NCBI GenBank assembly: GCA_013334765.1
Contig: JAAXWW010000004.1
Location: forward strand, 42,557 to 106,556
DNA: 64,000 nt
Direction: 5' to 3'
Source of the DNA: Candidatus Moraniibacteriota bacterium
GTDB lineage: Bacteria; Patescibacteriota; Minisyncoccia; Moranbacterales; UBA2206
Position numbers and translations under genes: made by a program
Shown: one piece after another, positions 6,926 to 51,929 of the stretch
Numbering within the stretch: position 1 is the first letter of the stretch
Layout: each line of letters starts with the position of its first letter
The notes under the pieces: generated by a model
Seen by the model: the letters and a program-made list of their open reading frames with translations, nothing else
What the model was told of the DNA's origin: nothing
Database searches by the model: none

Positions 6926-7006
6926 TTTTGGTTTAGTGTATACTTGCTGGAGTCAGGACAAGTGCCAGGAAAACAGCCTAACTACGCCTAAAATATCATC
7001 TTCATG

Positions 7007-7080
7007 CGCCCTTAGCTCAGCGGATTAGAGCATCACGCTTCGGACGTGAGGGTCGGGGGTTCGAGTCCCTCAGGGCGCAC
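7007..7080 (+). tRNA. tRNA-Arg (anticodon TCG)
   Basis: Acceptor gcgccct/agggcgc, anticodon stem tcacg/cgtga with loop ctTCGga, T-loop GGTTCGAGTCC. Confidence 0.85.
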
Positions 7081-20500: not shown

Positions 20501-23329
20501 CTAGAGATATTTCCCTGTCACGCTCCTTTTGCAGCTCTTGAGCCCTTTGGGCGTTCCTGCATAGACAAGTTCGCCGCCTTTTTCTCCTCCCTCGGGACCC
20601 AGATCGATCACCCAATCGGAGTTCTTGACCACGTCCAGGTTGTGTTCGACAACCAGAACCGTATTCCCTTTATCGACAAGCGCGTCCAGGACCAGAAGCA
20701 ACTTCTTCACGTCTTCGAAATGCAGCCCGATTGTCGGCTCGTCAAGGACATACAGCGTCTTTCCGGTTGAACGGCGCGCCAGCTCGGTCGCCAACTTGAT
20801 CCTCTGCGCTTCCCCGCCGCTCATATCAGTCGCGCTCTGGCCGAGCTTAAGATAGCCCAATCCAACCGATTCCAATGTTTCCAATTTCTCAGCAATGAGT
20901 TTCGAATTCTTGAAAAAAGAATGCGCATAAGAAACGCTCATGTCGAGAACATCGGCTATGTTGACTCCGCGATATTCTATTTCCAAAGTCTTCTGGTTGT
21001 ATCTCGATCCTCCGCAGCTCTCGCATTTGACATACATATCCGGCAAGAGATGCATCTCTATCTTCCTGTTTCCGTCGCCCTGGCAATTCTCGCACCGACC
21101 GCCTTTCATGTTGAAACTGAAACGGCTGGCATCATAGCCGCGCCTCTTCGCTTCCTCCATCTCTGAAAAAAGCTCGCGTATGAGGGAGAACACTCCCGTA
21201 TAGGTCGCTGCGTTCGATCTGGGCGTGCGTCCGATCGGAGACTGATTGATGCTTATCACTTTATCGATATTCGAAAGCCCCGTTATTTTCTTGTGACGCC
21301 CAGGATTATCTTTGGAACCGAAGAAATGCTTGGACAAAGCCTTGGAAAGAATATCCCTTACCAGAGTCGATTTTCCGGAACCGGAAACACCAGTCACCGA
21401 AATGAATTTACCAAGCGGAATCTCTACATCGATATTTTTGAGATTATGCTCGCTAGCAGAATGAATCTTGATGGATTTACCATTCCCCTTCCGGCATTTC
21501 GTCTTTTCCGAGACTTTCAATTTCCCGCTCAGATATTTTCCCGTAAGAGTTTTGGCTTTGATCATTTTGGCATAATCTCCCTCGAAAATAACCTCACCGC
21601 CTTCTTCTCCAGCGCCAGGCCCCATGTCAATGACCCAATCGGCACGCCTTATGATCTCCTCATCATGTTCGACCACGATCAAAGAATTTCCTGCTGCGCG
21701 CAATTTTTCCATCGTGTCGATCAGTTTTTCCGTATCGCGATTGTGCAACCCCATCGACGGTTCATCAAGGACATACGTAATTCCGGAAAGCTCCGACCCT
21801 ATCTGGGTTGCCAGACGGATCCTTTGCCCCTCTCCTCCGGAAATCGAATCCGCTGAACGGGAAAGCGACAGATAATCAAGCCCGACGTTTTTGAGCGCCA
21901 TGGCTTTAAGTCTCATTTCTTTCACGAGCGGAAGTACCATCTCTTTTTTCATTTTGCTCCAAGCCGCATTTTCCGCCTCCGTCAAAAACTCCAGGAAACC
22001 TGAAATCGGGAGACTGACAACCTCGTCGATTGATTTTCCTAAAACCAAAACGGAAAGAAATTCGTTTCGAAGCCGTTGGCCTTTGCAGATCGGGCACGGC
22101 TTCTCGATTATGTATTTTTCGATATCGCTTCTTGAATGATTGCCATTGGCATCTTCGTATCTTTTTTTCATTATCGGAATCACGCCGTCAAATGGGATAT
22201 CCGGATCATTCGATCCATAGAGAACAGCGTTCAGATTTTCACGGCTGATTTTATTGACGGGAGTGCCCAGCGAAAATCCGCATTTCTCCCCCAAAGTTCT
22301 CAGAATATTCCCCCCATTCCCGAGCATCGAAAACTTCCCTCCGGACTTGTTCCAGGAAAGGATAGCCCCTTCCGAAAGTGAAAGGTTCTTGTTCGGAATG
22401 ATGAGATCCTCGTCGATTTCCCTGATGACTCCGAGTCCGGAACAATGAGGACAAGCTCCTTCGTGATTATTGAAAGAGAAATGCCGCGGAGAGATTTCCG
22501 GAAGTTTGAAATCGCATTTCGAGCAGATAAAATCACGGTTATACTGTTTCCCCGCCTCTCCGCTTTTAGCCACCATCATCGTTCCTTTCCCGAGTTTGAA
22601 AGCAGTTTCGACCGAATCCAATATCCGCTCCTTATCCGGATTCTTTTCGTTGTGGATTATCCTGTCCACCACAATTTCCACCACATCAAGCGCATCCAAT
22701 TCTTCTTCATTACCCTGATATGCTTCATCGAAAGTCATTATCTTCCCTCCGATCCTGAGCCTCGCGTATCCAAGCTGAGAAACGCTTCTCAAAATCTCTC
22801 TCGCATTTTTTCCTTTCTCGCGAATGATAGCGATGATAACTAGCTGGGTCTTGTCAGGGAAAAAGAAAATCTCTTCCAAAACTTCCCGATTGGAAATCTT
22901 CTTCATGGGAATCTTGCAATTCGGACAGTGCGGCGTTCCGATCTTAGCGAACATGACACGGAGATAATCGTATATTTCCGTAAGAGTTCCGACAGTCGAA
23001 CGAGGCGAACGGCTCAAGCTTTTCTGATCGATGGAAATAGTCGGCGTCAGATTCTCGATCTTGTCCACATCCGGTTTCGATCCAGAATCCAAAAACTGCC
23101 GAGCATAGCTCGACATACCTTCAAGATATCTCCTATTGCCCTCCGCATAAATGGCATCGAAAGCGAGCGATGACTTCCCCGATCCGGAAAGCCCAGTGAT
23201 AACCACCATCTTGTCGCGCGGAATCTCGACGTTCACATTCTTGAGATTATTCACCCGCGCGCCCCTGACTATTATCTTATCCCTTTTCGTCTCGTTCTTC
23301 ATCTTCCCCCTGGTTTGATTCTGCGCCAT
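20501..23329 (-). CDS. uvrA: excinuclease ABC subunit A (UvrA), copy 1; start trimmed to [20 protein letters not shown]
   Basis: Two ABC ATPase modules with Walker [10 protein letters not shown] / GVSGSGKST, signatures LSGGEGQR / LSGGEAQR, zinc-finger Cys motifs. Confidence 0.9.
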
Positions 23330-23495
23330 TTTGGTAAGTGAGTTTAAAAAGCGAAAAACACGTTTACAGGTAGAAATTCTACAGCAGTTTTTGGGAAATG
23401 TCAAAGGTTCGCATGACATAATGAGAAATTGTAAAATGCAACAGAAAGCAAAGAAACATAAATATGCAATAAATACCTATGATTGAAAAGCTTGC

Positions 23496-25529: not shown

Positions 25530-28478
25530 TCATTTCTTTTTCAAAACATCCCTCAAATACTTCGCCGTCTCGCTCACTTCATGATATTTCGCCACTTCTT
25601 CGGGCGTTCCGGAAACAACCACTTTCCCACCACCCTCTCCGCCTTCCGGACCGAGATCGATTATCCAATCGGCCGTCTTGATGACATCCAGGTTATGTTC
25701 GATGACCACCACTGAATTTCCGGCATCCACCAAACGGCTGAGCACATCCAGAAGCTTCTTAATATCTTCGAAATGAAGCCCGGTAGTCGGTTCGTCCAGG
25801 ATATACAACGTATCCCCGGTTCCCCGCCTGGCAAGCTCGGTCGCCAATTTGATCCTCTGCGCTTCCCCTCCGGAAACCGTAGTCGCGCTCTGTCCCAATT
25901 GGATATATCCCAGACCCACGTCTTCAAGCGTTTTCAATTTAGAATATATCTCTGGAAAGTTCTTGAAGAATTCAGCCGCATCCGTGACGGTCATATCCAA
26001 AACATCGGAAACATTCTTTTCCTTGTATTTCACCTGCAGCGTCTCGCTGTTATATCTTTTTCCATGGCATACGTCGCAAGGAAGATAGACGTCCGGCATG
26101 AACTGCATTTCTATCTTATTGAATCCTTCCCCTTGGCAGTTATCGCATCTTCCGCCTTTCACATTGAAAGAGAATCTTCCCGGACCGTACCCTTTGGCTT
26201 TGGCATCGCGCGTCGCGGCGAAAAGCTCGCGGATCGGAGTGAACACTCCCGTATAGGTCGCAGGATTGGATCTCGGCGTTCTCCCGATGGGAGACTGATC
26301 GATCATGATCACTTTGTCTATATTCTCCACTCCGACGATTTCCTTGTGTTTCCCGGGCTTGTCCAGGCTCCTCATTATTTTCGAAGACAATCCTTTATAG
26401 AGAACGTCTTCCACTAACGTAGACTTCCCAGAACCCGATACCCCGGTCACGCAGGTAAAGACCTTGAGCGGAAATTCCACAGTGATGCTTTTGAGATTGT
26501 TCTCGGTAGCCTGCCTGACTATGACGGATTTCTTGTTCTTCATGGCGCGCCTGAAAGACGGGACGGATATTTCCAGATCGCCTCGAAGATATTTGGCGGT
26601 AAGCGATTTTCCTGATCTGATCACTTCTTGAGGCGTGCCGTGGGCCACGATCTCCCCTCCATGCTTGCCGGCACCCGGCCCGAAATCGACCAGATAATCC
26701 GCCGCTCGCATAGTCTCCTCGTCATGTTCCACCACGATCAAAGTGTTTCCGATATCGCGAAGGGAAAGAAGCGTGGAAAGCAATTTGGTATTATCGCGGG
26801 GATGGAGCCCGATCGACGGCTCGTCCAGGATATACAGAACGCCTGTAAGCTGCGAACCGATCTGAGACGCCAGGCGGATCCTCTGCGCTTCCCCGCCCGC
26901 CAATGTGGCGGCGCTGCGATGAAGCGTCAGATAGCCCAGTCCCACGTTTTCCAAAAATCCAAGCCTGTTCCAGATTTCTTTCAATATCCTTCCGGCAATC
27001 ATTTTCTCCCTATCCGAAAGGGAAAGCTCGCAGAAAAACGCCAGCGATTCCTTTATGCTTGTCTTTGAAACATCATAAATATTCCTATCCCTGAGGGTGA
27101 CCAATAGCGTCTCCTTCTTATATCTGGCTCCATGACAGGTCGAACAAGGATTCTGCGACATGTATTTCTCGATGTCAGTCCTCACGGCATCGGAATCCGT
27201 TTTCAGATACCTGTCCTGAAGATAGCCGACCACTCCCCGCCAATGCATGTTATATTTCCAGCTCGATCCGGTTTTCGATCGGAGCGTCACCGGAATATCG
27301 TCGGCCTCCTCTTCCGGAATCATATCGGTCGCGTCCGGCGAACCGAACATGAGCGTGTTGAAATCATCGTCGGACAGATCGCGAAGACGGATATTATCCC
27401 TTATGTGATAGTGATTGGTGACCGCTCGAAGGACCGTTCCCTGCCAATTGTTCTTCTTATAGCTCCACGGCATCAAACCGCCCTCGGCAATAGTCTTGTT
27501 CTTGTCCGGCGCCACCAGATCAGGATCGATTTCCTTTTTGAGTCCCAATCCTTCGCAATCAGGACAAGCCCCATACGGGCTGTTGAAAGAGAAAAGCCTC
27601 GGTTCCAATTCGGGGAATTCTATCTCATGCACCGGACAGGAAAAATTCTGATTGAAAATCATTTCCGCATCTGGATTCTCATCGCCCGCTTCAGTTTTTT
27701 TCGGTTTCGATTTCTTGCTATCGGATTTGATCTTGACTATCCCATGGGAAAGATTGAGCGCTTTTTCCACGTCCTCGAATATCCTGGCGATGTTCCCATC
27801 GCTCACTTCGACATCGTCGATAACGATGTCCACATCGTGCTTCTTATATCTCGCCAGCTTCACCTTCTCGCCCATCTTCGCGCTGAGCTCGTATCGCTTG
27901 CCATTGACATACGCATAGGAAAAACCGCGCTTATGCATATCCTCAAGAAGAGTCGAATATTCCCCCTTGCGGCCGCGGACCACCGGAGACAGGATCTCTA
28001 TCTTCGGACATTCAGCGCTCTTTATGGCAGCCTTCCCTCCTTTGAGGCATGCTTCAAGAATCCTATCCACGATCTCATCGACTGACAGTTTCACTATTTC
28101 GCGCCCGCATATCGGACAGTGCGCCACTCCGATCTTGGCATAAAGAAGACGCAGATAGTCATGGATTTCCGTTACCGTCCCGACAGTTGATCGAGGATTC
28201 CTCGAAGCCGATTTCTGATCGATGGAAATAGCCGGCGACAGTCCCTCGATAAGGTCCACGTCCGGTTTCTCCATCTTTCCCAAAAACTGCCGCGCATAAC
28301 TGGAAAGGCTTTCCAGATAGCGCCGTTGCCCTTCAGCGAATATGGTATCGAAAGCCAAAGTCGACTTCCCTGATCCGGAGAGGCCTGTGAAGATTATGAA
28401 TTTATTGCGAGGAAGATCGAGATCGATATTCTTGAGATTATGTTCCCTCGCCCCTCTTATGATTATTTTATCCTGCAT
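25530..28478 (-). CDS. uvrA: excinuclease ABC subunit A (UvrA), copy 2 (full length, 982 aa)
   Basis: MQDKIIIRGAREHNLKNI N-terminus; both ABC modules and signature motifs present; ~50% identical to copy 1 by eye. Confidence 0.9.
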   Translation of the reverse strand: MQDKIIIRGAREHNLKNIDLDLPRNKFIIFTGLSGSGKSTLAFDTIFAEGQRRYLESLSSYARQFLGKMEKPDVDLIEGLSPAISIDQKSASRNPRSTVGTVTEIHDYLRLLYAKIGVAHCPICGREIVKLSVDEIVDRILEACLKGGKAAIKSAECPKIEILSPVVRGRKGEYSTLLEDMHKRGFSYAYVNGKRYELSAKMGEKVKLARYKKHDVDIVIDDVEVSDGNIARIFEDVEKALNLSHGIVKIKSDSKKSKPKKTEAGDENPDAEMIFNQNFSCPVHEIEFPELEPRLFSFNSPYGACPDCEGLGLKKEIDPDLVAPDKNKTIAEGGLMPWSYKKNNWQGTVLRAVTNHYHIRDNIRLRDLSDDDFNTLMFGSPDATDMIPEEEADDIPVTLRSKTGSSWKYNMHWRGVVGYLQDRYLKTDSDAVRTDIEKYMSQNPCSTCHGARYKKETLLVTLRDRNIYDVSKTSIKESLAFFCELSLSDREKMIAGRILKEIWNRLGFLENVGLGYLTLHRSAATLAGGEAQRIRLASQIGSQLTGVLYILDEPSIGLHPRDNTKLLSTLLSLRDIGNTLIVVEHDEETMRAADYLVDFGPGAGKHGGEIVAHGTPQEVIRSGKSLTAKYLRGDLEISVPSFRRAMKNKKSVIVRQATENNLKSITVEFPLKVFTCVTGVSGSGKSTLVEDVLYKGLSSKIMRSLDKPGKHKEIVGVENIDKVIMIDQSPIGRTPRSNPATYTGVFTPIRELFAATRDAKAKGYGPGRFSFNVKGGRCDNCQGEGFNKIEMQFMPDVYLPCDVCHGKRYNSETLQVKYKEKNVSDVLDMTVTDAAEFFKNFPEIYSKLKTLEDVGLGYIQLGQSATTVSGGEAQRIKLATELARRGTGDTLYILDEPTTGLHFEDIKKLLDVLSRLVDAGNSVVVIEHNLDVIKTADWIIDLGPEGGEGGGKVVVSGTPEEVAKYHEVSETAKYLRDVLKKK

Positions 28479-43801: not shown

Positions 43802-43825
43802 GCAATCCGTATTTGATCATAAAAA

Positions 43826-43848
43826 AACACCGTAAAGCGGTGTTTTTT
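43826..43848 (+). terminator. Rho-independent terminator after trpS
   Basis: aacaccg-taaag-cggtgtt followed by TTTT. Confidence 0.6.
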
Positions 43849-43860
43849 AAATATGTTAGA

Positions 43861-44016
43861 GCAGCATCGCGTGTTTTTGCGCCATTGAACGAAAGCTGCA
43901 AATTACTGAAGTGAGATGATAAAAAACACAGATTGTGAAACAATCGTTTGTTTTTTGAATCGAACGTAAGATAATTTGCCTTGAGTGAAATAATGCGCAA
44001 AAACACGCGATGCTGC
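43861..44016. repeat. 156-bp element flanked by 22-bp perfect inverted repeats (gcagcatcgcgtgtttttgcgc)
   Basis: IR-L 43861-43882, IR-R 43995-44016; internal small palindrome gattgtgaaacaatc. Confidence 0.6.
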
Positions 44017-44036
44017 GAAATGAAAATGAGCAGAAA

Positions 44037-45374
44037 TTATCCCCTGATCACCCCCAGTACTTCGTCCCGCTTCTCTTCCATCATCTCTTTCGTATTCGCT
44101 TCCAGATTGAGACGCAGTTTTGGTTCGGTGTTCGAGGCTCTCACGTTGAACCACCATTCCGGAAAATCGATGCGAATCCCGTCACGCTCGTCCAGCTTTC
44201 CGTCTTTATATATTTCCTTGAGCTTCGCCATGACAGCATCCTTGTCAGCCACATCGGAATTGATTTCGCCGCTATGGAAATATCTTTTGAGTTCTGCAGT
44301 GAGTTCCGACATCTTCTTTCCCGTCTCGTTCATGAGATTGAGGAGCATCATCGCAGCCAGCGTCGCCATCTCGGCTTTCGAGTTCTCTTCGAAGAAATAG
44401 TGTCCTGAAAGTTCTCCAGCAAAAACCGCTCCGACTTCCCTCATCTGCTTTTTGATGAGCGAATGGCCGACCCGCGACCTTTCAACTGACCCGCCCGCTT
44501 CTTCAATCACTTCTTTGACTGCATTCGATGACCTGAGATCCATCAGGATTTTCCCGCCCGGATATTTCTTAAGCACTTCTTTGGCCAGCAGCGCGATCAT
44601 GAAATCCATCGGGACGATATCGCCCTTCTCATCCACGAATCCCACCCTGTCGGCATCGCCGTCATATGCGATTCCGAGATCGGCGCCGTTCGCGATCACT
44701 TCGGCCTGAAGAGCTCCGAGCGTTTCGGTCTTCAATGGATTGGCTTCATGATTGGGGAAGTTCCCGTCGAGCTCATCGAAAAGGCTGACTGCCTCAATAT
44801 CATTTTGAAATCTCGAATAGACATCCTTGTCCGCAATCCCCATTCCATTGGCGAAATCGATGACTATTTTCTTCTTGCTGACTCCCGGCTTGAAAAATCC
44901 GGCGACATAGTCGACATAGTCTTCCTTGAGCGTTTCGTTCTCCTCGACTTCTCCTCTCCTCACCGCTTCCGGAAATCCTCCCGCGACTGCCATATCCCTG
45001 ATCTCTTCCATACCGTTCCCCTCTCCGATCGGAACCGCGCCCTTCAAGCAGAACTTCATCCCGTTATACTCCGCCGGATTATGGCTGGCCGTCACCATGA
45101 CCGCCGCATCGACATCCAGGTTCCAGGAAGCGAAATATACCATCGGGGTCGACACAATCCCAATATCGACTACATCGGCGCCCTGTTCGGTAATGCCGCT
45201 AAGAAGCGCGTTTTTGAGGCTTGGCGACGATTCCCGCATATCCATGCCGACTGCCACCTTTTTGGCTCCCGTATGGGCCACCAAAGCCCGCCCGATTGCA
45301 TATGCCCCATCTTCATTCAGTTCCGCCGGATATAGTCCCCGGATATCATAGGCCTTGAAAATCCCTTTTTCCAT
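44037..45374 (-). CDS. phosphomannomutase/phosphoglucomutase; start set at MEKGIFKAYDIRG (the ORF-track start is an upstream TTG)
   Basis: Active-site loop TASHNP, metal-binding DGDADR, sugar-binding GELSGH; extended -10 TGgTATAAT promoter at ~45403-45411. Confidence 0.85.
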   Translation of the reverse strand: MEKGIFKAYDIRGLYPAELNEDGAYAIGRALVAHTGAKKVAVGMDMRESSPSLKNALLSGITEQGADVVDIGIVSTPMVYFASWNLDVDAAVMVTASHNPAEYNGMKFCLKGAVPIGEGNGMEEIRDMAVAGGFPEAVRRGEVEENETLKEDYVDYVAGFFKPGVSKKKIVIDFANGMGIADKDVYSRFQNDIEAVSLFDELDGNFPNHEANPLKTETLGALQAEVIANGADLGIAYDGDADRVGFVDEKGDIVPMDFMIALLAKEVLKKYPGGKILMDLRSSNAVKEVIEEAGGSVERSRVGHSLIKKQMREVGAVFAGELSGHYFFEENSKAEMATLAAMMLLNLMNETGKKMSELTAELKRYFHSGEINSDVADKDAVMAKLKEIYKDGKLDERDGIRIDFPEWWFNVRASNTEPKLRLNLEANTKEMMEEKRDEVLGVIRG

Positions 45375-45421
45375 ATTTTTTTCGTTAAGTCTTTTATATC
45401 CCAATTATACCACGCGGAAAA

Positions 45422-45455
45422 TAAAAAAACCGCCGACCCTGGTTAGGATCGGCGG
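45422..45455 (-). terminator. Rho-independent terminator just upstream of the pgm promoter
   Basis: Minus strand: ccgccgatcc-taaccagg-gtcggcgg followed by TTTTTTTAT. Confidence 0.55.
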
Positions 45456-45563
45456 CTAATGCCTGCGGGGGAAATAATTCCTAATAGCTTCCTGCCTCGC
45501 TTCAAGTCAGCCTAATGCACTATTCGCATGAATGATCGCAATATGAAGCAGTATTTACCAGGG

Positions 45564-45881
45564 TTATTTTATAAGCCTCAGATGGCCCCATTTTTTATCC
45601 ATGGCGGGGACTTCCGTATTATCCCCCAGTTTTAAGACGGTGCTTTCGCCATGTTCATCTGTCAGCACTAATCTTCCTCCCTTTCTTTCCGTTCTATCTA
45701 ATATTAGTCCAAGCCTGATAAAGGTCCGCAAAAGGGCAACAACTTCAACACCTCTCCTGACTGAAATCTTCTCCAGCTCAGCCAATAATATAGGTGGGAT
45801 AGTCATAAAGCATCCAGTTACGAACGATTTGGCTAGTACATTATTCAAAAAACTTATGCACTTGCGCAACACGCTTATCAT
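45564..45881 (-). CDS. hypothetical small protein with a ribbon-helix-helix-like segment (TIPPILLAELEKISVRRGVEVVALLRTF)
   Basis: 105-aa ORF inside the ~580-bp segment bounded by the two diverged copies of the pgm 5' region. Confidence 0.4.
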   Translation of the reverse strand: MISVLRKCISFLNNVLAKSFVTGCFMTIPPILLAELEKISVRRGVEVVALLRTFIRLGLILDRTERKGGRLVLTDEHGESTVLKLGDNTEVPAMDKKWGHLRLIK

Positions 45882-45997
45882 GGCAGTCCTCCATTTTATC
45901 GTATTCCGATGTCAAATAACATTCCGTTTATAATACACGACCAGGAAAAATTGGCAATATCCCGTTATAAGCACTCGAGTAGATTAGCAAACTTGAT

Positions 45998-46100
45998 TCA
46001 GTTCCGCCTAGTATAGCCACCGGATGTCATAAGCTTTGAAAATACCTTTTTCGTATGTTTTTCGTTAAGTATTTTATGTTCCCGTTATGCCATGACGAGG
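45998..46100 (-). pseudogene. decayed duplicate (~80% identity) of the pgm promoter and first ~20 codons
   Basis: Aligns with 45320-45420 on the same strand; the copy carries ATG->ACG and an in-frame TAG. Confidence 0.6.
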
Positions 46101-46176
46101 ATTATTTTTCATTGACAATCAGCCGAATAGCCGTCAGAATATCCTTACGCTTTAAGAAATCAACTACCATATCATT

Positions 46177-47241
46177 ATGTCCCTGAAAATCGGCATCGTC
46201 GGGCTTCCGAACGTCGGGAAATCGACTCTTTTCAAAGCCCTCACCAGATCCCAAGTCGACATCAACAACTATCCCTTCTGCACGATCGAGCCTAATGTCG
46301 GGATCGTCAAAGTGCCGGATGTTAGGTTGGAAAAGCTGGCCGTCGCATCGGCTTCCAAAAAAATCGTTCCGGCCGTGGTCGAATTCGTCGACATCGCCGG
46401 ACTCGTGGAAGGAGCATCCAAAGGAGAAGGCCTGGGAAACAAATTCCTGGCCAACATCCGGGAAGTGGATGCTATCTTGGAAGTGGTGCGCGTCTTCGAC
46501 AATTCCCAAATCATCCATGTCATGAGCAAGATAGATCCGGAACACGACATGGAAATAATCAACACCGAGCTTATCTTGGCGGATTTGGAAACGGTCAACA
46601 AAGTGGAAATAAGGATCGACAAGGAAGTGCGCGGAAGAAAGAAAGATGCGGAAGAGAAATTGAAAATAGTCCGGGAAATAAAGAAGATGCTTGAAGATGG
46701 AGACCTTGCCAACAAATTCCTGACGAGCAATCCGAAAGAAGCATGGAGCGAGGCTACAAAGGAAATCATCCAGGAGCTTTCCCTTCTGACCATCAAGCCG
46801 TTCCTCTATGCGTTCAATGTCGCCGATCCGGAGCAGGAGCTTGCTGAAAATCTGGAAAAACTGAACCACGTGAAACTGGACATAAAAATCGAAGAAGAGC
46901 TTTCGGAAATGTCTCCTGAAGAAGCTCTCGAATTCGGACTGAAATCCAATATCGACTCGCTCACTATAAAAGCCTATGAGATCCTGGGACTGATCACTTT
47001 CCTGACAACCGGACCGGATGAAAGCCGCGCCTGGACTATAAAGAGGGGTTCCACCGCGCCGCAGGCCGGAGCCGCCATCCACGGCGACTTCGAAGAGAAA
47101 TTCATCCGGGCGGAAGTCGTCAATTGGGAAGAGCTGCTTGCCGCCGGATCCTGGTCAAAAGCCAGGGATATCGGAAAGCTCCGGCTGGAAGGAAAAGAAT
47201 ACATAGTCAAAGACGGCGACGTCATCGAGTTCAAGATATAA
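46177..47241 (+). CDS. ychF: redox-regulated ATPase YchF (Obg-family GTPase with TGS domain)
   Basis: G1 GLPNVGKST, G3 DIAGL, NxxD; C-terminal TGS. Confidence 0.9.
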   Translation: MSLKIGIVGLPNVGKSTLFKALTRSQVDINNYPFCTIEPNVGIVKVPDVRLEKLAVASASKKIVPAVVEFVDIAGLVEGASKGEGLGNKFLANIREVDAILEVVRVFDNSQIIHVMSKIDPEHDMEIINTELILADLETVNKVEIRIDKEVRGRKKDAEEKLKIVREIKKMLEDGDLANKFLTSNPKEAWSEATKEIIQELSLLTIKPFLYAFNVADPEQELAENLEKLNHVKLDIKIEEELSEMSPEEALEFGLKSNIDSLTIKAYEILGLITFLTTGPDESRAWTIKRGSTAPQAGAAIHGDFEEKFIRAEVVNWEELLAAGSWSKARDIGKLRLEGKEYIVKDGDVIEFKI

Positions 47242-49397: not shown

Positions 49398-49478
49398 CGT
49401 TTCCTTGCGAACATATTGTTTTTGCGGCTTCCGTGCGAAGCGAAAGGCAAGCAAAAATGATATGTTCGCAAGGAAACG
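49398..49478. repeat. 81-bp hairpin element (28-bp IR arms, conserved loop GGCTTCCGTG..GCGAAGCGAAAGGCAAG) inserted between ssb and rpsR
   Basis: Arms cgtttccttgcgaacatattgtttttgc / gcaaaaatgatatgttcgcaaggaaacg; paralog at 50361..50447. Confidence 0.65.
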
Positions 49479-49778: not shown

Positions 49779-50336
49779 ATGATAGGAATATCAGAAATAA
49801 AATCAGGAAAAACCATAATCCTGAATGGCGTTCCGTTCGCCGTCCTCTATCACGAACATTCGAAAACCGGACGCGCCGGATCAGTGCTCAGAACGAGGCT
49901 CAAGAACCTTGCCACCGGAGCCGTCCTCGAAAAGACATTCCAAGGCGCCGAACAAGTCGACGAGACCGAAATCAAGAAATCGAAAGCCCAATTCACCTAC
50001 AAAGAAGGCAACGACTACAATTTCATGGACACCGAGTCGTATGAACAGTTCTCGCTTTCAAAAGAAGTGCTCGGGGAAAACGTCGACTATCTGATCGAAG
50101 GCGCCGAAGTGCTGTTCCTCTATTTCAACGACAACCCCATAAACATTGAGCTTCCGGTCAAAATGACTTTCCGTGTCACAGACGCTCCGCCGGGAATCAA
50201 GGGCAACACCGTTTCAACCGGAGGAAAGCTCGTCACCATCGAGACCGGAAAGAAAATCGCTACTCCCCTTTTCGTAGAAGCCGGAGACAGCATAATCGTC
50301 AACACCGAAAAAGGAGAATACGTGAGCCGGGCATAA
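49779..50336 (+). CDS. efp: elongation factor P
   Basis: 185 aa, three OB/KOW-like domains; conserved loop ...HSKTGRAGS... (modified Lys/Arg position). Confidence 0.9.
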   Translation: MIGISEIKSGKTIILNGVPFAVLYHEHSKTGRAGSVLRTRLKNLATGAVLEKTFQGAEQVDETEIKKSKAQFTYKEGNDYNFMDTESYEQFSLSKEVLGENVDYLIEGAEVLFLYFNDNPINIELPVKMTFRVTDAPPGIKGNTVSTGGKLVTIETGKKIATPLFVEAGDSIIVNTEKGEYVSRA

Positions 50337-50360: not shown

Positions 50361-50447
50361 GTTTTCTCTCAAGCATAATCATTTTGCGGCTTCCGTGTGA
50401 GCGAAGCGAACGAAAGGCAAGTAAAATGATTATGCTTGAGAGAAAAC
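50361..50447. repeat. 87-bp hairpin element, paralog of 49398..49478, between efp and smpB
   Basis: Outer arm sequences differ but still pair (compensatory changes); inner arm + loop conserved (ATTTTGCGGCTTCCGTGTGAGCGAAGCGAACGAAAGGCAAGTAAAATGA). Confidence 0.65.
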
Positions 50448-50954: not shown

Positions 50955-51345
50955 GGGGATGTTTGGCTTCGACAGATTGTACGTTTAAAATATGCAAGCC
51001 GAAGTCGATGGGTCTTCGCAAAAAACCATCAAACGTCATAAGTGCAAACTTATACACAAAAGCAAGAACTGCAATGGCGCAAGCCTTTTCAGCCAACTTC
51101 GCTACCGCTTTAGCCTAACAAGGCTTTAGCCATCGAACTTCCGATTCCTGATAGGAAGACCTCGGTGCCAAATATCAGGATGGTCGTCCTTGTCCTCTTC
51201 TTGCAAGTTCGATAAGAAAAGATGAAGATAGAACGGGGTTATTTTTCCTGCTTCCTACCCCCGCTCGAAAAAAATAAGCAGGATACGCTTGTAGATTATT
51301 TTGAATGAACAGTTATGGACGCGAGTTCAATTCTCGCCATCTCCA
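50955..51345 (+). ncRNA. ssrA: tmRNA (SsrA); tRNA-like domain at both ends, tag reading frame ending ...ANFATALA-TAA at 51118; CCA not encoded
   Basis: 5' GGGGATG pairs with 3' CATCTCC-A; T-arm GGACGCGAGTTCAATTCTCGCC; Ala-rich tag frame with ALA* terminus; adjacent to smpB. Confidence 0.8.
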
Positions 51346-51347
51346 CA

Positions 51348-51929
51348 ATAATAATATTTAAGGACAAACCTATCAGAAGGACATTCCACCGGCGCCCTGT
51401 TCAGAAAAAGGAGCCCGAACACAAAATAAACGAACGCATCCGGGCTTTGGAAGTTCGGCTCATCGGCGAAAACGGCGAGCAGTTCGGAGTGATACCGACC
51501 CAGGAAGCATTGGCAATGGCTCAAGAGCAATCCCTTGACCTGGTCGAGGTATCGCCGAAATCAGTTCCGCCCGTATGCCGCATCATGGATTATGGCAAAT
51601 TCCAATACCAGCAATCCAAACAGGAAAAGATCCATAAGGTCAAACAGAAGAAATCGGAAATAAAAGGAATCCGCATAGGAGCCAGGACCGACGAGCATGA
51701 CCTCAATTTCAAAAAGGATCAGGCTGAAAAATTCCTGACCAAAGGAAACAAAGTGAAGGTTGAAATAATCCTGCGCGGACGGGAGAAAGCCTATCAGGAT
51801 CTCGCCAGGCAGAACCTCCATAATTTCATCAAGAACATAACCGCCCCCTACAAGATAGAACAGGAGATCAAAAGATTCCCGGGCGGATTCAATGTCATAA
51901 TAACCCCTGAAATAATTGCTAAGCAATAA
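51348..51929 (+). CDS. infC: translation initiation factor IF-3; non-ATG start (in-frame ATA codons at 51348/51351/51354), exact start uncertain
   Basis: INERIRALEVRLIGENGEQ N-domain and C-domain conserved; infC-rpmI-rplT order; the ATG of the ORF track lies inside the tmRNA 3' end. Confidence 0.75.
   Translation: MIIFKDKPIRRTFHRRPVQKKEPEHKINERIRALEVRLIGENGEQFGVIPTQEALAMAQEQSLDLVEVSPKSVPPVCRIMDYGKFQYQQSKQEKIHKVKQKKSEIKGIRIGARTDEHDLNFKKDQAEKFLTKGNKVKVEIILRGREKAYQDLARQNLHNFIKNITAPYKIEQEIKRFPGGFNVIITPEIIAKQ

Follow-up and report, generated by a model that had tools for sequence, protein, structure and literature searches.

The 64,000-nucleotide (nt) stretch of Candidatus Moraniibacteriota contig JAAXWW010000004.1 analyzed here (hereafter, the window) carries a single-gene insertion between ychF and pgm, two divergent neighboring genes that lie 802 nt apart. 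About 578 nt of unique DNA are bracketed there by two diverged copies of the promoter and 5′ end of pgm, and homology-driven recombinational capture of a horizontally acquired single-gene cassette is, on balance, the probable origin of this arrangement. An initial annotation of the sequence had described a diverged duplication of about 100 bp at the start of pgm, in which the distal copy has ACG in place of ATG and an in-frame stop. Both observations were confirmed, and the boundaries were refined to the two intervals given as copy A and copy B in Table 1. The duplicated interval (~103 bp) starts at −42, where the extended −10 box lies, and reaches +62, in codon 21 of pgm. The copies are 81 to 82% identical over 102 to 103 nt at a spacing of 680 to 681 nt; the repeat search recovered them as two segments (84% over 61 nt and 75% over 59 nt) separated by a 1-nt register shift, and their MAFFT alignment displays an abrupt loss of similarity at both ends. 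The similarity did not fall to chance on alignment, as a blastn search of copy A against the whole window returned 81.4% identity over 102 nt with one gap (E = 1.8e-22) and a runner-up at E = 0.02. Copy A holds the intact extended −10 TGGTATAAT (45412-45404) and the pgm start codon (ATG, 45374-45372). The counterpart in copy B reads TGGCATAAC, with a degraded −10 box (CATAAC), and is followed by the ACG (46054-46052) and, in the register of pgm, by a 1-nt deletion in codon 2 and a TAG at codon 16 (46010-46008). The longest blocks identical between the copies are 13 nt (GGCGGAACTGAAT and ACTTAACGAAAAA), a length that is uninformative on an identical crossover core because the copies are 18% diverged.

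An insertion that regenerated the 5′ end of pgm had also been proposed, with a suggestion to look for the empty site in the pgm upstream regions of relatives. Such a site is present in a close relative, locus L089, where the Pgm protein is 91% identical to that of the window and only 123 nt separate ychF and pgm, compared with 121 nt in the window when the 681-nt repeat period is subtracted from 802 nt. The blastn comparison of the window with L089 yields two high-scoring segment pairs that overlap on L089 2809-2910, leaving 102 nt aligned twice; one comprises copy B and everything toward ychF, the other comprises copy A and all of pgm, and window positions 45413-45991 are unmatched. Colinearity of the flanks spans about 8 kb, and the order of the housekeeping genes around the insert (trpS, pgm, ychF, uppP, and rpsF) is the same in both. 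The multiple alignment places copy B plus 46095-46176 colinearly along all 123 nt that separate ychF and pgm in L089. These comparisons support the 578-nt DNA as an insertion relative to the empty site. The spacer measures 127 to 226 nt in the nearer relatives L002, L005, L008, L009, L013, and L026, and among the species-representative genomes no relative locus with a longer ychF-pgm spacer has a pgm 5′ repeat. About 30 related loci contained neither a pgm 5′ repeat nor an integrase-bearing element at this position. Because copy B and its flank are colinear with the L089 intergenic region, we identify copy B, on these alignments, as the original pgm promoter and 5′ end, left in place, cut off from its gene, and decayed at the intergenic rate. 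Copy A is the pgm-side copy that keeps pgm expressed.

The history of the copies was examined over 103 aligned columns of three sequences (A, B, and L089). Twelve sites and one indel are specific to copy B and five sites to copy A; the two copies agree and L089 differs at seven sites, and all three differ at one. Copy B is 80% identical to L089, near the value for the adjacent intergenic DNA (80 to 83%), and copy A is 87% identical, near the value for the rest of pgm (84 to 88%). This pattern is consistent with an event of some age, after which one copy was constrained and the other drifted at the noncoding rate. Two further readings of the substitutions were dropped. The seven shared differences from L089 had been considered as a sign that A and B are sisters, but three taxa form a star tree and the outgroups L091 and L092 polarize the sites ambiguously. 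Similarly, six of the nine substitutions between the copies in codons 3 to 20 fall at third positions, an excess that is nondiagnostic of a foreign copy A because an in situ duplicate with one constrained copy yields the same pattern. The sliding identity of the window pgm against L089 and another relative, L090, displays no clear donor tract adjoining copy A.

The inserted cassette and its small protein

The insert is a complete minus-strand expression cassette with a promoter-like site, a Shine-Dalgarno sequence, an open reading frame (ORF) of 105 codons (ORF105), and an intrinsic terminator. The initial annotation had listed both the 105-amino-acid (aa) ORF and a terminator abutting the pgm promoter; the former is present and preceded by GGAGG, and the latter ends 15 nt upstream of the pgm extended −10. 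The NCBI annotation gives a shorter, 80-aa version of the gene that starts at 45806 (HGB08_03415). The GC content of the insert is 0.38 to 0.46, versus about 0.50 in native genes, and GC at third codon positions (GC3) is 0.43 in ORF105, versus 0.61 in native genes. By a codon log-likelihood trained on the housekeeping genes of the window, the ORF105 frame ranks at the top of the six frames, yet it scores −0.003 per codon compared with 0.16 to 0.57 in housekeeping genes. These deviations in GC3 and codon-usage score point to coding DNA that is foreign or was acquired recently. The cassette has no second ORF, with only 107 nt between the ORF105 stop and the terminator, and no further copy of the insert DNA was found in the window or in 80 related loci. 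Neither the insert, in which ORF105 is the sole gene, nor the adjoining flank genes encode a tyrosine or serine recombinase. The repeat search found no inverted repeat pairing the insert ends, there is no transposase, and the duplication measures 103 bp, which sets the insert apart from insertion sequences and miniature inverted-repeat transposable elements. If the insert is as old as the duplication, ORF105 would appear to be under some selection to stay open, because its 105 codons have remained open despite ~13% neutral change and ~1 indel per 100 nt.

Searched alone, ORF105 has no significant family match, including no ribbon-helix-helix (RHH), Pfam, or NCBIfam match, and it has no close homolog among 5.8 billion clusters or among 1.8 billion proteins. 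An exhaustive HMMER search with ORF105 found four weak homologs, and a profile search gathered 37 proteins, mostly ~70 aa long, that constitute a clear, sparse, and unnamed family with the consensus KRYNLVLPEELYAEVEKVA..RHTTVVEILRKFIKLGLL....E.P.A.LLIREG..ER.I.LL. The weak matches of the family profile in the PDB (E values of 0.014 to 0.8) are nearly all RHH proteins, including Arc (0.014), VapB26 (0.024), an Arc-family protein, HP0222, AvtR, EndoAI, a CopG-family protein, and CdbA; the top-ranked match is a non-RHH protein, a DARPin (E = 0.0019), in which no stretch passes alone. Nine of 36 family members match the PHROG family "Arc-like repressor," and the Pfam domains RHH_1 and RHH_5 each match two of five members weakly (about 6e-4), with all RHH matches below the curated thresholds. 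One member is named as CopG family by NCBI. An AlphaFold2 monomer model built with the family alignment has helices at residues 30 to 43 and 47 to 66 (predicted local distance difference test score [pLDDT] of 78 to 85) after an extended segment, followed by a hairpin at residues 70 to 83, with an overall pLDDT of 64.5; the model from the single sequence is poor (pLDDT, 45), and a Foldseek search of the alignment-based monomer model against the PDB gave no significant match. Collectively, these weak but consistent signals suggest that the family is of the RHH (Arc/CopG-like) type. The RHH-like core read into the ORF by the initial annotation therefore holds at the family level, through the Arc, VapB26, CopG, and PHROG matches, but not for ORF105 alone.

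ORF105 is an outlier of this family. It shares 22 to 35% identity with the other members, carries a 25-aa N-terminal and a 20-aa C-terminal extension relative to them, and differs at five of eight near-invariant positions, with K-R-Y-N-L replaced by G-C-F-M-T, so that the K-R of the putative DNA-reading strand is missing. The protein may be diverging in function or decaying. Genes for a D5-type primase, RusA, and a Dam methylase accompany two family members, which lie in phage-like early regions, and another member is located in a small-gene operon adjoining a two-component system. ORF105 most likely codes for a DNA-binding regulator, small and of the RHH type, whose ancestry would lie in phages or mobile elements. 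The suggestion that it is an antitoxin-like gene is unsupported because the cassette holds no partner toxin gene; a PADLOC search returned no matches for the family.

Two other members (L085 5001-5519 and L086 1845-2406) are followed, ~40 nt downstream, by an 87- to 100-aa protein with a hydrophobic C-terminal segment. Nothing in the window corresponds to these partners, which are also without a Pfam match, and the RHH-like gene and its partner may constitute a two-gene module. The gene pair on L085 adjoins a type III CRISPR-Cas locus. Member P0007, on L081 1-648, is a 155-aa ORF that fuses the KH_2 domain of ribosomal protein S3 to the RHH-family core. It was considered as a second 5′-end insertion, into rpsC, and was set aside as a probable assembly chimera because the contig is 648 nt long, changes base composition abruptly at about nt 318, and holds no repeat.

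The ychF-pgm spacer and the probable route of capture

The divergent ychF-pgm synteny is common in Moranbacteria (species-representative genomes), and comparison of related loci indicates that the spacer is a slot in which genes have been gained repeatedly. The ychF −35 and the pgm extended −10 are only about 20 nt apart in L089. Two other relatives, L090 (Pgm 91% identical) and L093, have an insert of ~865 nt at this place, with a 256-aa gene in the opposite orientation that has no Pfam match and without a duplication; toward pgm, the insert stops directly before TGGTATAAT. Across the insert region, L093 and L090 are 99.9% identical, and because L093 was obtained from the sample that also yielded the empty L089, the slot is polymorphic for presence and absence inside one community. 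A third cargo occurs in L091 (Pgm 82% identical), a 154-aa gene with its own Shine-Dalgarno sequence and a terminator abutting the −10, where the insert ends immediately upstream of the extended −10 TGATATAAT and the locus has no repeat. In L092 (Pgm 85% identical), a hairpin is found just upstream of the −10, at which point the contig ends. The likeness of the terminator-to-−10 junctions in the window and L091 (GGCGG, a T-run, ATT, ~8 nt, and TG.TATAAT) was judged to be generic terminator similarity rather than a sign of homology.

Recombination among these strains is visible at the same position. The empty and filled alleles of L089 (2809-3225) and L090 (2400-2816) are 98.8% identical from the pgm −10 to +375, compared with 79% on the ychF side of the slot, 79 to 96% in the rest of pgm, and about 80% in ychF. 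In addition, ychF and pgm display discordant similarity relationships among the three lineages compared. The switch from 98.8% to 79% and the discordance between the two genes indicate that homologous exchange tracts end at the slot, the 98.8% identical stretch being a recent one. The common insert boundary is most simply explained by selection, under which only the spacer between the two promoters tolerates insertions; recombination halting at nonhomologous inserts would add to the shared boundary, and no site-specific enzyme would be required.

The spacer is also occupied in more distant relatives. In L019, L022, L024, and L025, of a distant Moranbacteria clade (Pgm 58 to 61% identical), a conserved 84- to 85-aa gene that we take by eye to be YbaB/EbfC-like lies between ychF and pgm, and L025 has an additional 219-aa ORF in the spacer. 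L007 has a 185-aa ORF between the two genes, presumably 3-methyladenine DNA glycosylase-like as read by eye. The pgm-trpS spacer is a second variable slot, with a 121-aa gene (no Pfam match) at L089 4295-4660 and only 235 nt in the window (43802-44036).

In the reading that we favor, a foreign cassette of ~578 nt would have been captured in the ychF-pgm spacer of a Candidatus Moranbacteria lineage, and the capture would have duplicated ~103 bp of the target (−42 to +62 of pgm) through homology-dependent recombination rather than through an integrase. Two routes could produce this outcome. A small circular DNA carrying the cassette and the −42 to +62 segment could have entered by a Campbell-type single crossover. 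Alternatively, a linear donor from a related strain, consisting of cassette, promoter, and pgm, could have entered by homology-facilitated illegitimate recombination (HFIR), with pgm as the homologous anchor and an illegitimate junction at +62 of the recipient. Copy B has since decayed at the intergenic rate, and copy A keeps pgm working. A homology-driven route is favored because the insert is one small gene in flanks colinear with the empty allele, because related loci have no larger element or repeat and no viral contig scanned matches the pgm 5′ pattern, and because neighboring strains display single-gene cargos and recombination tracts that end at the same junction.

Several points weigh against this capture model. 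Its topology is identical to that of integrase-mediated integration with an element-borne replacement of the gene end, as in e14 with icd/icdC, and after about 18% divergence a formerly identical core could have eroded to the blocks of at most 13 nt seen today. The collections searched contained neither a donor arrangement, in which the cassette would adjoin pgm in the absence of copy B, nor a circular form. ORF105 lacks a close relative in the protein databases searched, and no junction microhomology is recognizable. Finally, the star tree of three taxa would accommodate either a donor strain or the strain's own chromosome as the origin of copy A.

The initial annotation had suggested that the locus may be the scar or minimal remnant of an integrative element. 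In a fuller form of this account, an integrase-type element or prophage would have targeted the pgm promoter and 5′ end with a phage-side attachment site (attP) that included a replacement copy, and an internal deletion would later have left the RHH gene between the attachment (att) repeats. In Streptococcus thermophilus terminology, such a remnant is a cis-mobilizable element (CIME)-like element; it is by definition without a recombinase, so the missing recombinase is compatible with that subtype. The direct repeats around foreign DNA, the functional gene end adjoining the insert, the empty site in L089, and a cargo family with members in phage-like early regions and with PHROG Arc-like and CopG-like repressor matches are all in keeping with this account, for which e14 at icd/icdC is a precedent (PMC13626634). 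We nevertheless hold it to be doubtful. The insert has a single gene, with no integrase or other element gene, and its flanks are syntenic with L089 over about 8 kb; just 578 nt are left, yet they form a tidy and complete expression cassette, which would need a very precise internal deletion. No integrase-bearing element, larger element, or repeat was found at this site in the about 30 related loci, and the other cargos at the slot lack repeats. The viral contigs scanned do not carry the pgm 5′ pattern, although the exact-match and word-based searches for the insert and for a matching attP could miss diverged copies. As far as 18% divergence allows one to tell, the repeats also have no perfectly identical core (longest block in common, 13 nt).

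An in situ replication or repair error without a homologous donor is unlikely. Template switching, similar to microhomology-mediated break-induced replication, or the capture of a foreign fragment at a break at +62, with synthesis resuming at −42, would account for copy B being contiguous with the native flank and for the target interval being duplicated on both sides of the insert, an established signature of template switching. The junctions, however, display no visible microhomology, and related strains have homologous recombination tracts that end at the slot. Moreover, the extended −10, the functional edge of the promoter, is precisely where the duplication begins, a placement accounted for more readily by a copy A that came in already joined to the cassette or that selection has trimmed. 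Less probable again, and in our view a long shot, is that the 103-bp repeats are still functional att sites of a miniature nonautonomous CIME-like element, mobilized in trans or in cis by an integrase that is encoded elsewhere and targets the pgm promoter and 5′ end, with the RHH protein as a regulator or directionality factor; the other cargos of the slot would then be alternative passengers of one site-specific system. Chance similarity, or a misassembly joining two strain variants, is hardly credible even for a contig of a metagenome-assembled genome from a locus where strain mixtures exist: the repeat has an E value of 1.8e-22, an 18% difference would not confuse an assembler, copy B, given its ACG, frameshift, stop, and degraded −10, does not represent an allelic form of a functional gene, and the contig of L089, which is independent and stems from a different study, is colinear on both sides.

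Homologous recombination explains the anatomy of the locus with fewer assumptions than an integrase element does. Documentation of gene gain is scant for bacteria of the Candidate Phyla Radiation (CPR), whose genomes are small and streamlined, and the ychF-pgm locus is a clean natural example in which an empty site, alternative cargos, and a fossilized target duplication occur together. It suggests that single accessory genes can enter between essential genes, which are not silenced as a result, by homologous recombination among coexisting strains rather than by dedicated mobile-element machinery. The analysis also flags a small unnamed family of Arc/CopG-like proteins of ~70 aa.

Features of the locus and other repeats in the window

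The Pgm protein of the window is a 100% match to an NCBI Moranbacteria protein and is 91% identical to the proteins P0041 and P0042. On the other side of the insert, the ychF promoter consists of TTGACA (46112-46117), a 17-nt spacer, and CAGAAT (46135-46140), and this promoter-like site is kept in the window, L090, and L091. The features of the locus are compiled in Table 1.

Table 1. Features of the pgm-ychF locus in window coordinates
Feature	Position	Strand	Basis or remark
pgm (phosphoglucomutase/phosphomannomutase, 445 aa, intact)	44037..45374	−	Four PGM_PMM Pfam domains, E 3e-36 to 3e-12
Copy A: working pgm extended −10, 5′ untranslated region, ATG, and codons 1 to 21	45311..45414	−	Repeat search, MAFFT
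Intrinsic terminator, 13-bp stem then T-run	45428..45457	−	−23.3 kcal/mol, z −4.07
Unique inserted DNA, about 578 nt	45415..45991		Without counterpart in the empty-site relative L089
ORF105, 105 codons	45564..45881	−	ORF list; divergent member of the ~70-aa RHH-like family
Shine-Dalgarno GGAGG	45888..45892	−	6 nt before the ATG at 45881; read from the sequence
Promoter-like site TTGCCA-16-TATTAT	45930..45957	−	Consensus match only, 10/12; 49 nt upstream of the ORF105 ATG
Copy B: displaced ancestral pgm promoter and 5′ end, decayed	45992..46094	−	Repeat search, MAFFT, L089 colinearity
Ancestral ychF-proximal intergenic DNA including the ychF promoter	46095..46176	+	Aligns to L089
ychF (GTPase/ATPase, 354 aa)	46177..47241	+	YchF-GTPase_C and MMR_HSR1 domains

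Three other sets of repeats were observed in the window. Two elements of ~80 to 90 nt at 49399-49477 and 50361-50447 (plus strand) form near-perfect hairpins of ~28 bp (−52 and −49 kcal/mol; z −8.6 and −9.1). Pairing is complete in both stems although their sequences differ, and the two elements have a conserved apical part (GCGGCTTCCGTG.GA...CGAAAGGCAAG); the pair flanks a 185-aa ORF (49779-50336), and neither element has an Rfam match at gathering thresholds. A 50-nt direct repeat with 90% identity at 62033-62082 and 62673-62722 (plus strand), ending in GGAG...ATG, looks like a common hairpin-containing leader with a Shine-Dalgarno sequence and start codon before two tandem ORFs. On the minus strand, 20501-23419 and 25530-28478 are two paralogous genes of ~975 aa with DNA blocks 64 to 84% identical, ~5.1 kb apart (repeat families D1 to D8 and D11). 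The window also has a tmRNA gene at 50955-51348 (plus strand, 150 bits) and tRNA genes at 329-401, 480-552, 786-856, and 7006-7079.

Comparison with known systems

The protein encoded by the cassette resembles RHH regulators (Arc, CopG, MetJ, VapB, and MazE-type antitoxins) in the profile matches of its family and in the predicted helix-helix core. It differs from them in the extra C-terminal β-hairpin of the family, and ORF105 itself has neither the conserved K-R nor a toxin partner.

With regard to the insertion, single crossover of circular DNA has produced duplications of 109 to 950 bp flanking the insert in experiments (PMC3240628), and the HFIR displacement model has been proposed to leave orphaned gene stubs (PMC5361080). 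As in these processes, the foreign DNA in the window lies between two direct copies of one chromosomal segment (~100 bp or longer), and one of the copies still runs on into the native flank. Such processes work without a recombinase supplied by an element, and homologous exchange is seen among the related strains. Unlike in the experiments, the process here would be reconstructed from one natural product in an uncultured CPR bacterium, in which the copies have since diverged by 18%.

With e14 at icd/icdC, the target gene end exists in two copies: a functional one next to the insert and, at the far end, the displaced host version in the form of a pseudogene (PMC13626634). The order of parts in e14 and phage 21 at icd is the same as in the window: native flank, displaced old gene end, insert, functional gene end, and gene. 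However, e14 is about 15 kb long, encodes an integrase, targets the 3′ end of its gene, and undergoes SOS-induced excision, whereas in the window the 5′ end and promoter are duplicated around a 578-nt insert with one small gene and no recombinase.

Integration hotspots of the kind called genomic islets are slots between core genes whose contents are exchanged by homologous recombination in the flanks. The ychF-pgm spacer is comparable to these, being empty or filled with different accessory genes in close relatives and having flanks of mosaic identity. It is distinct in that single genes occupy a spacer of ~20 nt between divergent promoters and in that the target duplication occurs in the window allele only. 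Taken together, the locus is a well-resolved case of a familiar type of event, in which recombination adds a gene and duplicates part of the target, and it leaves current concepts unchanged.

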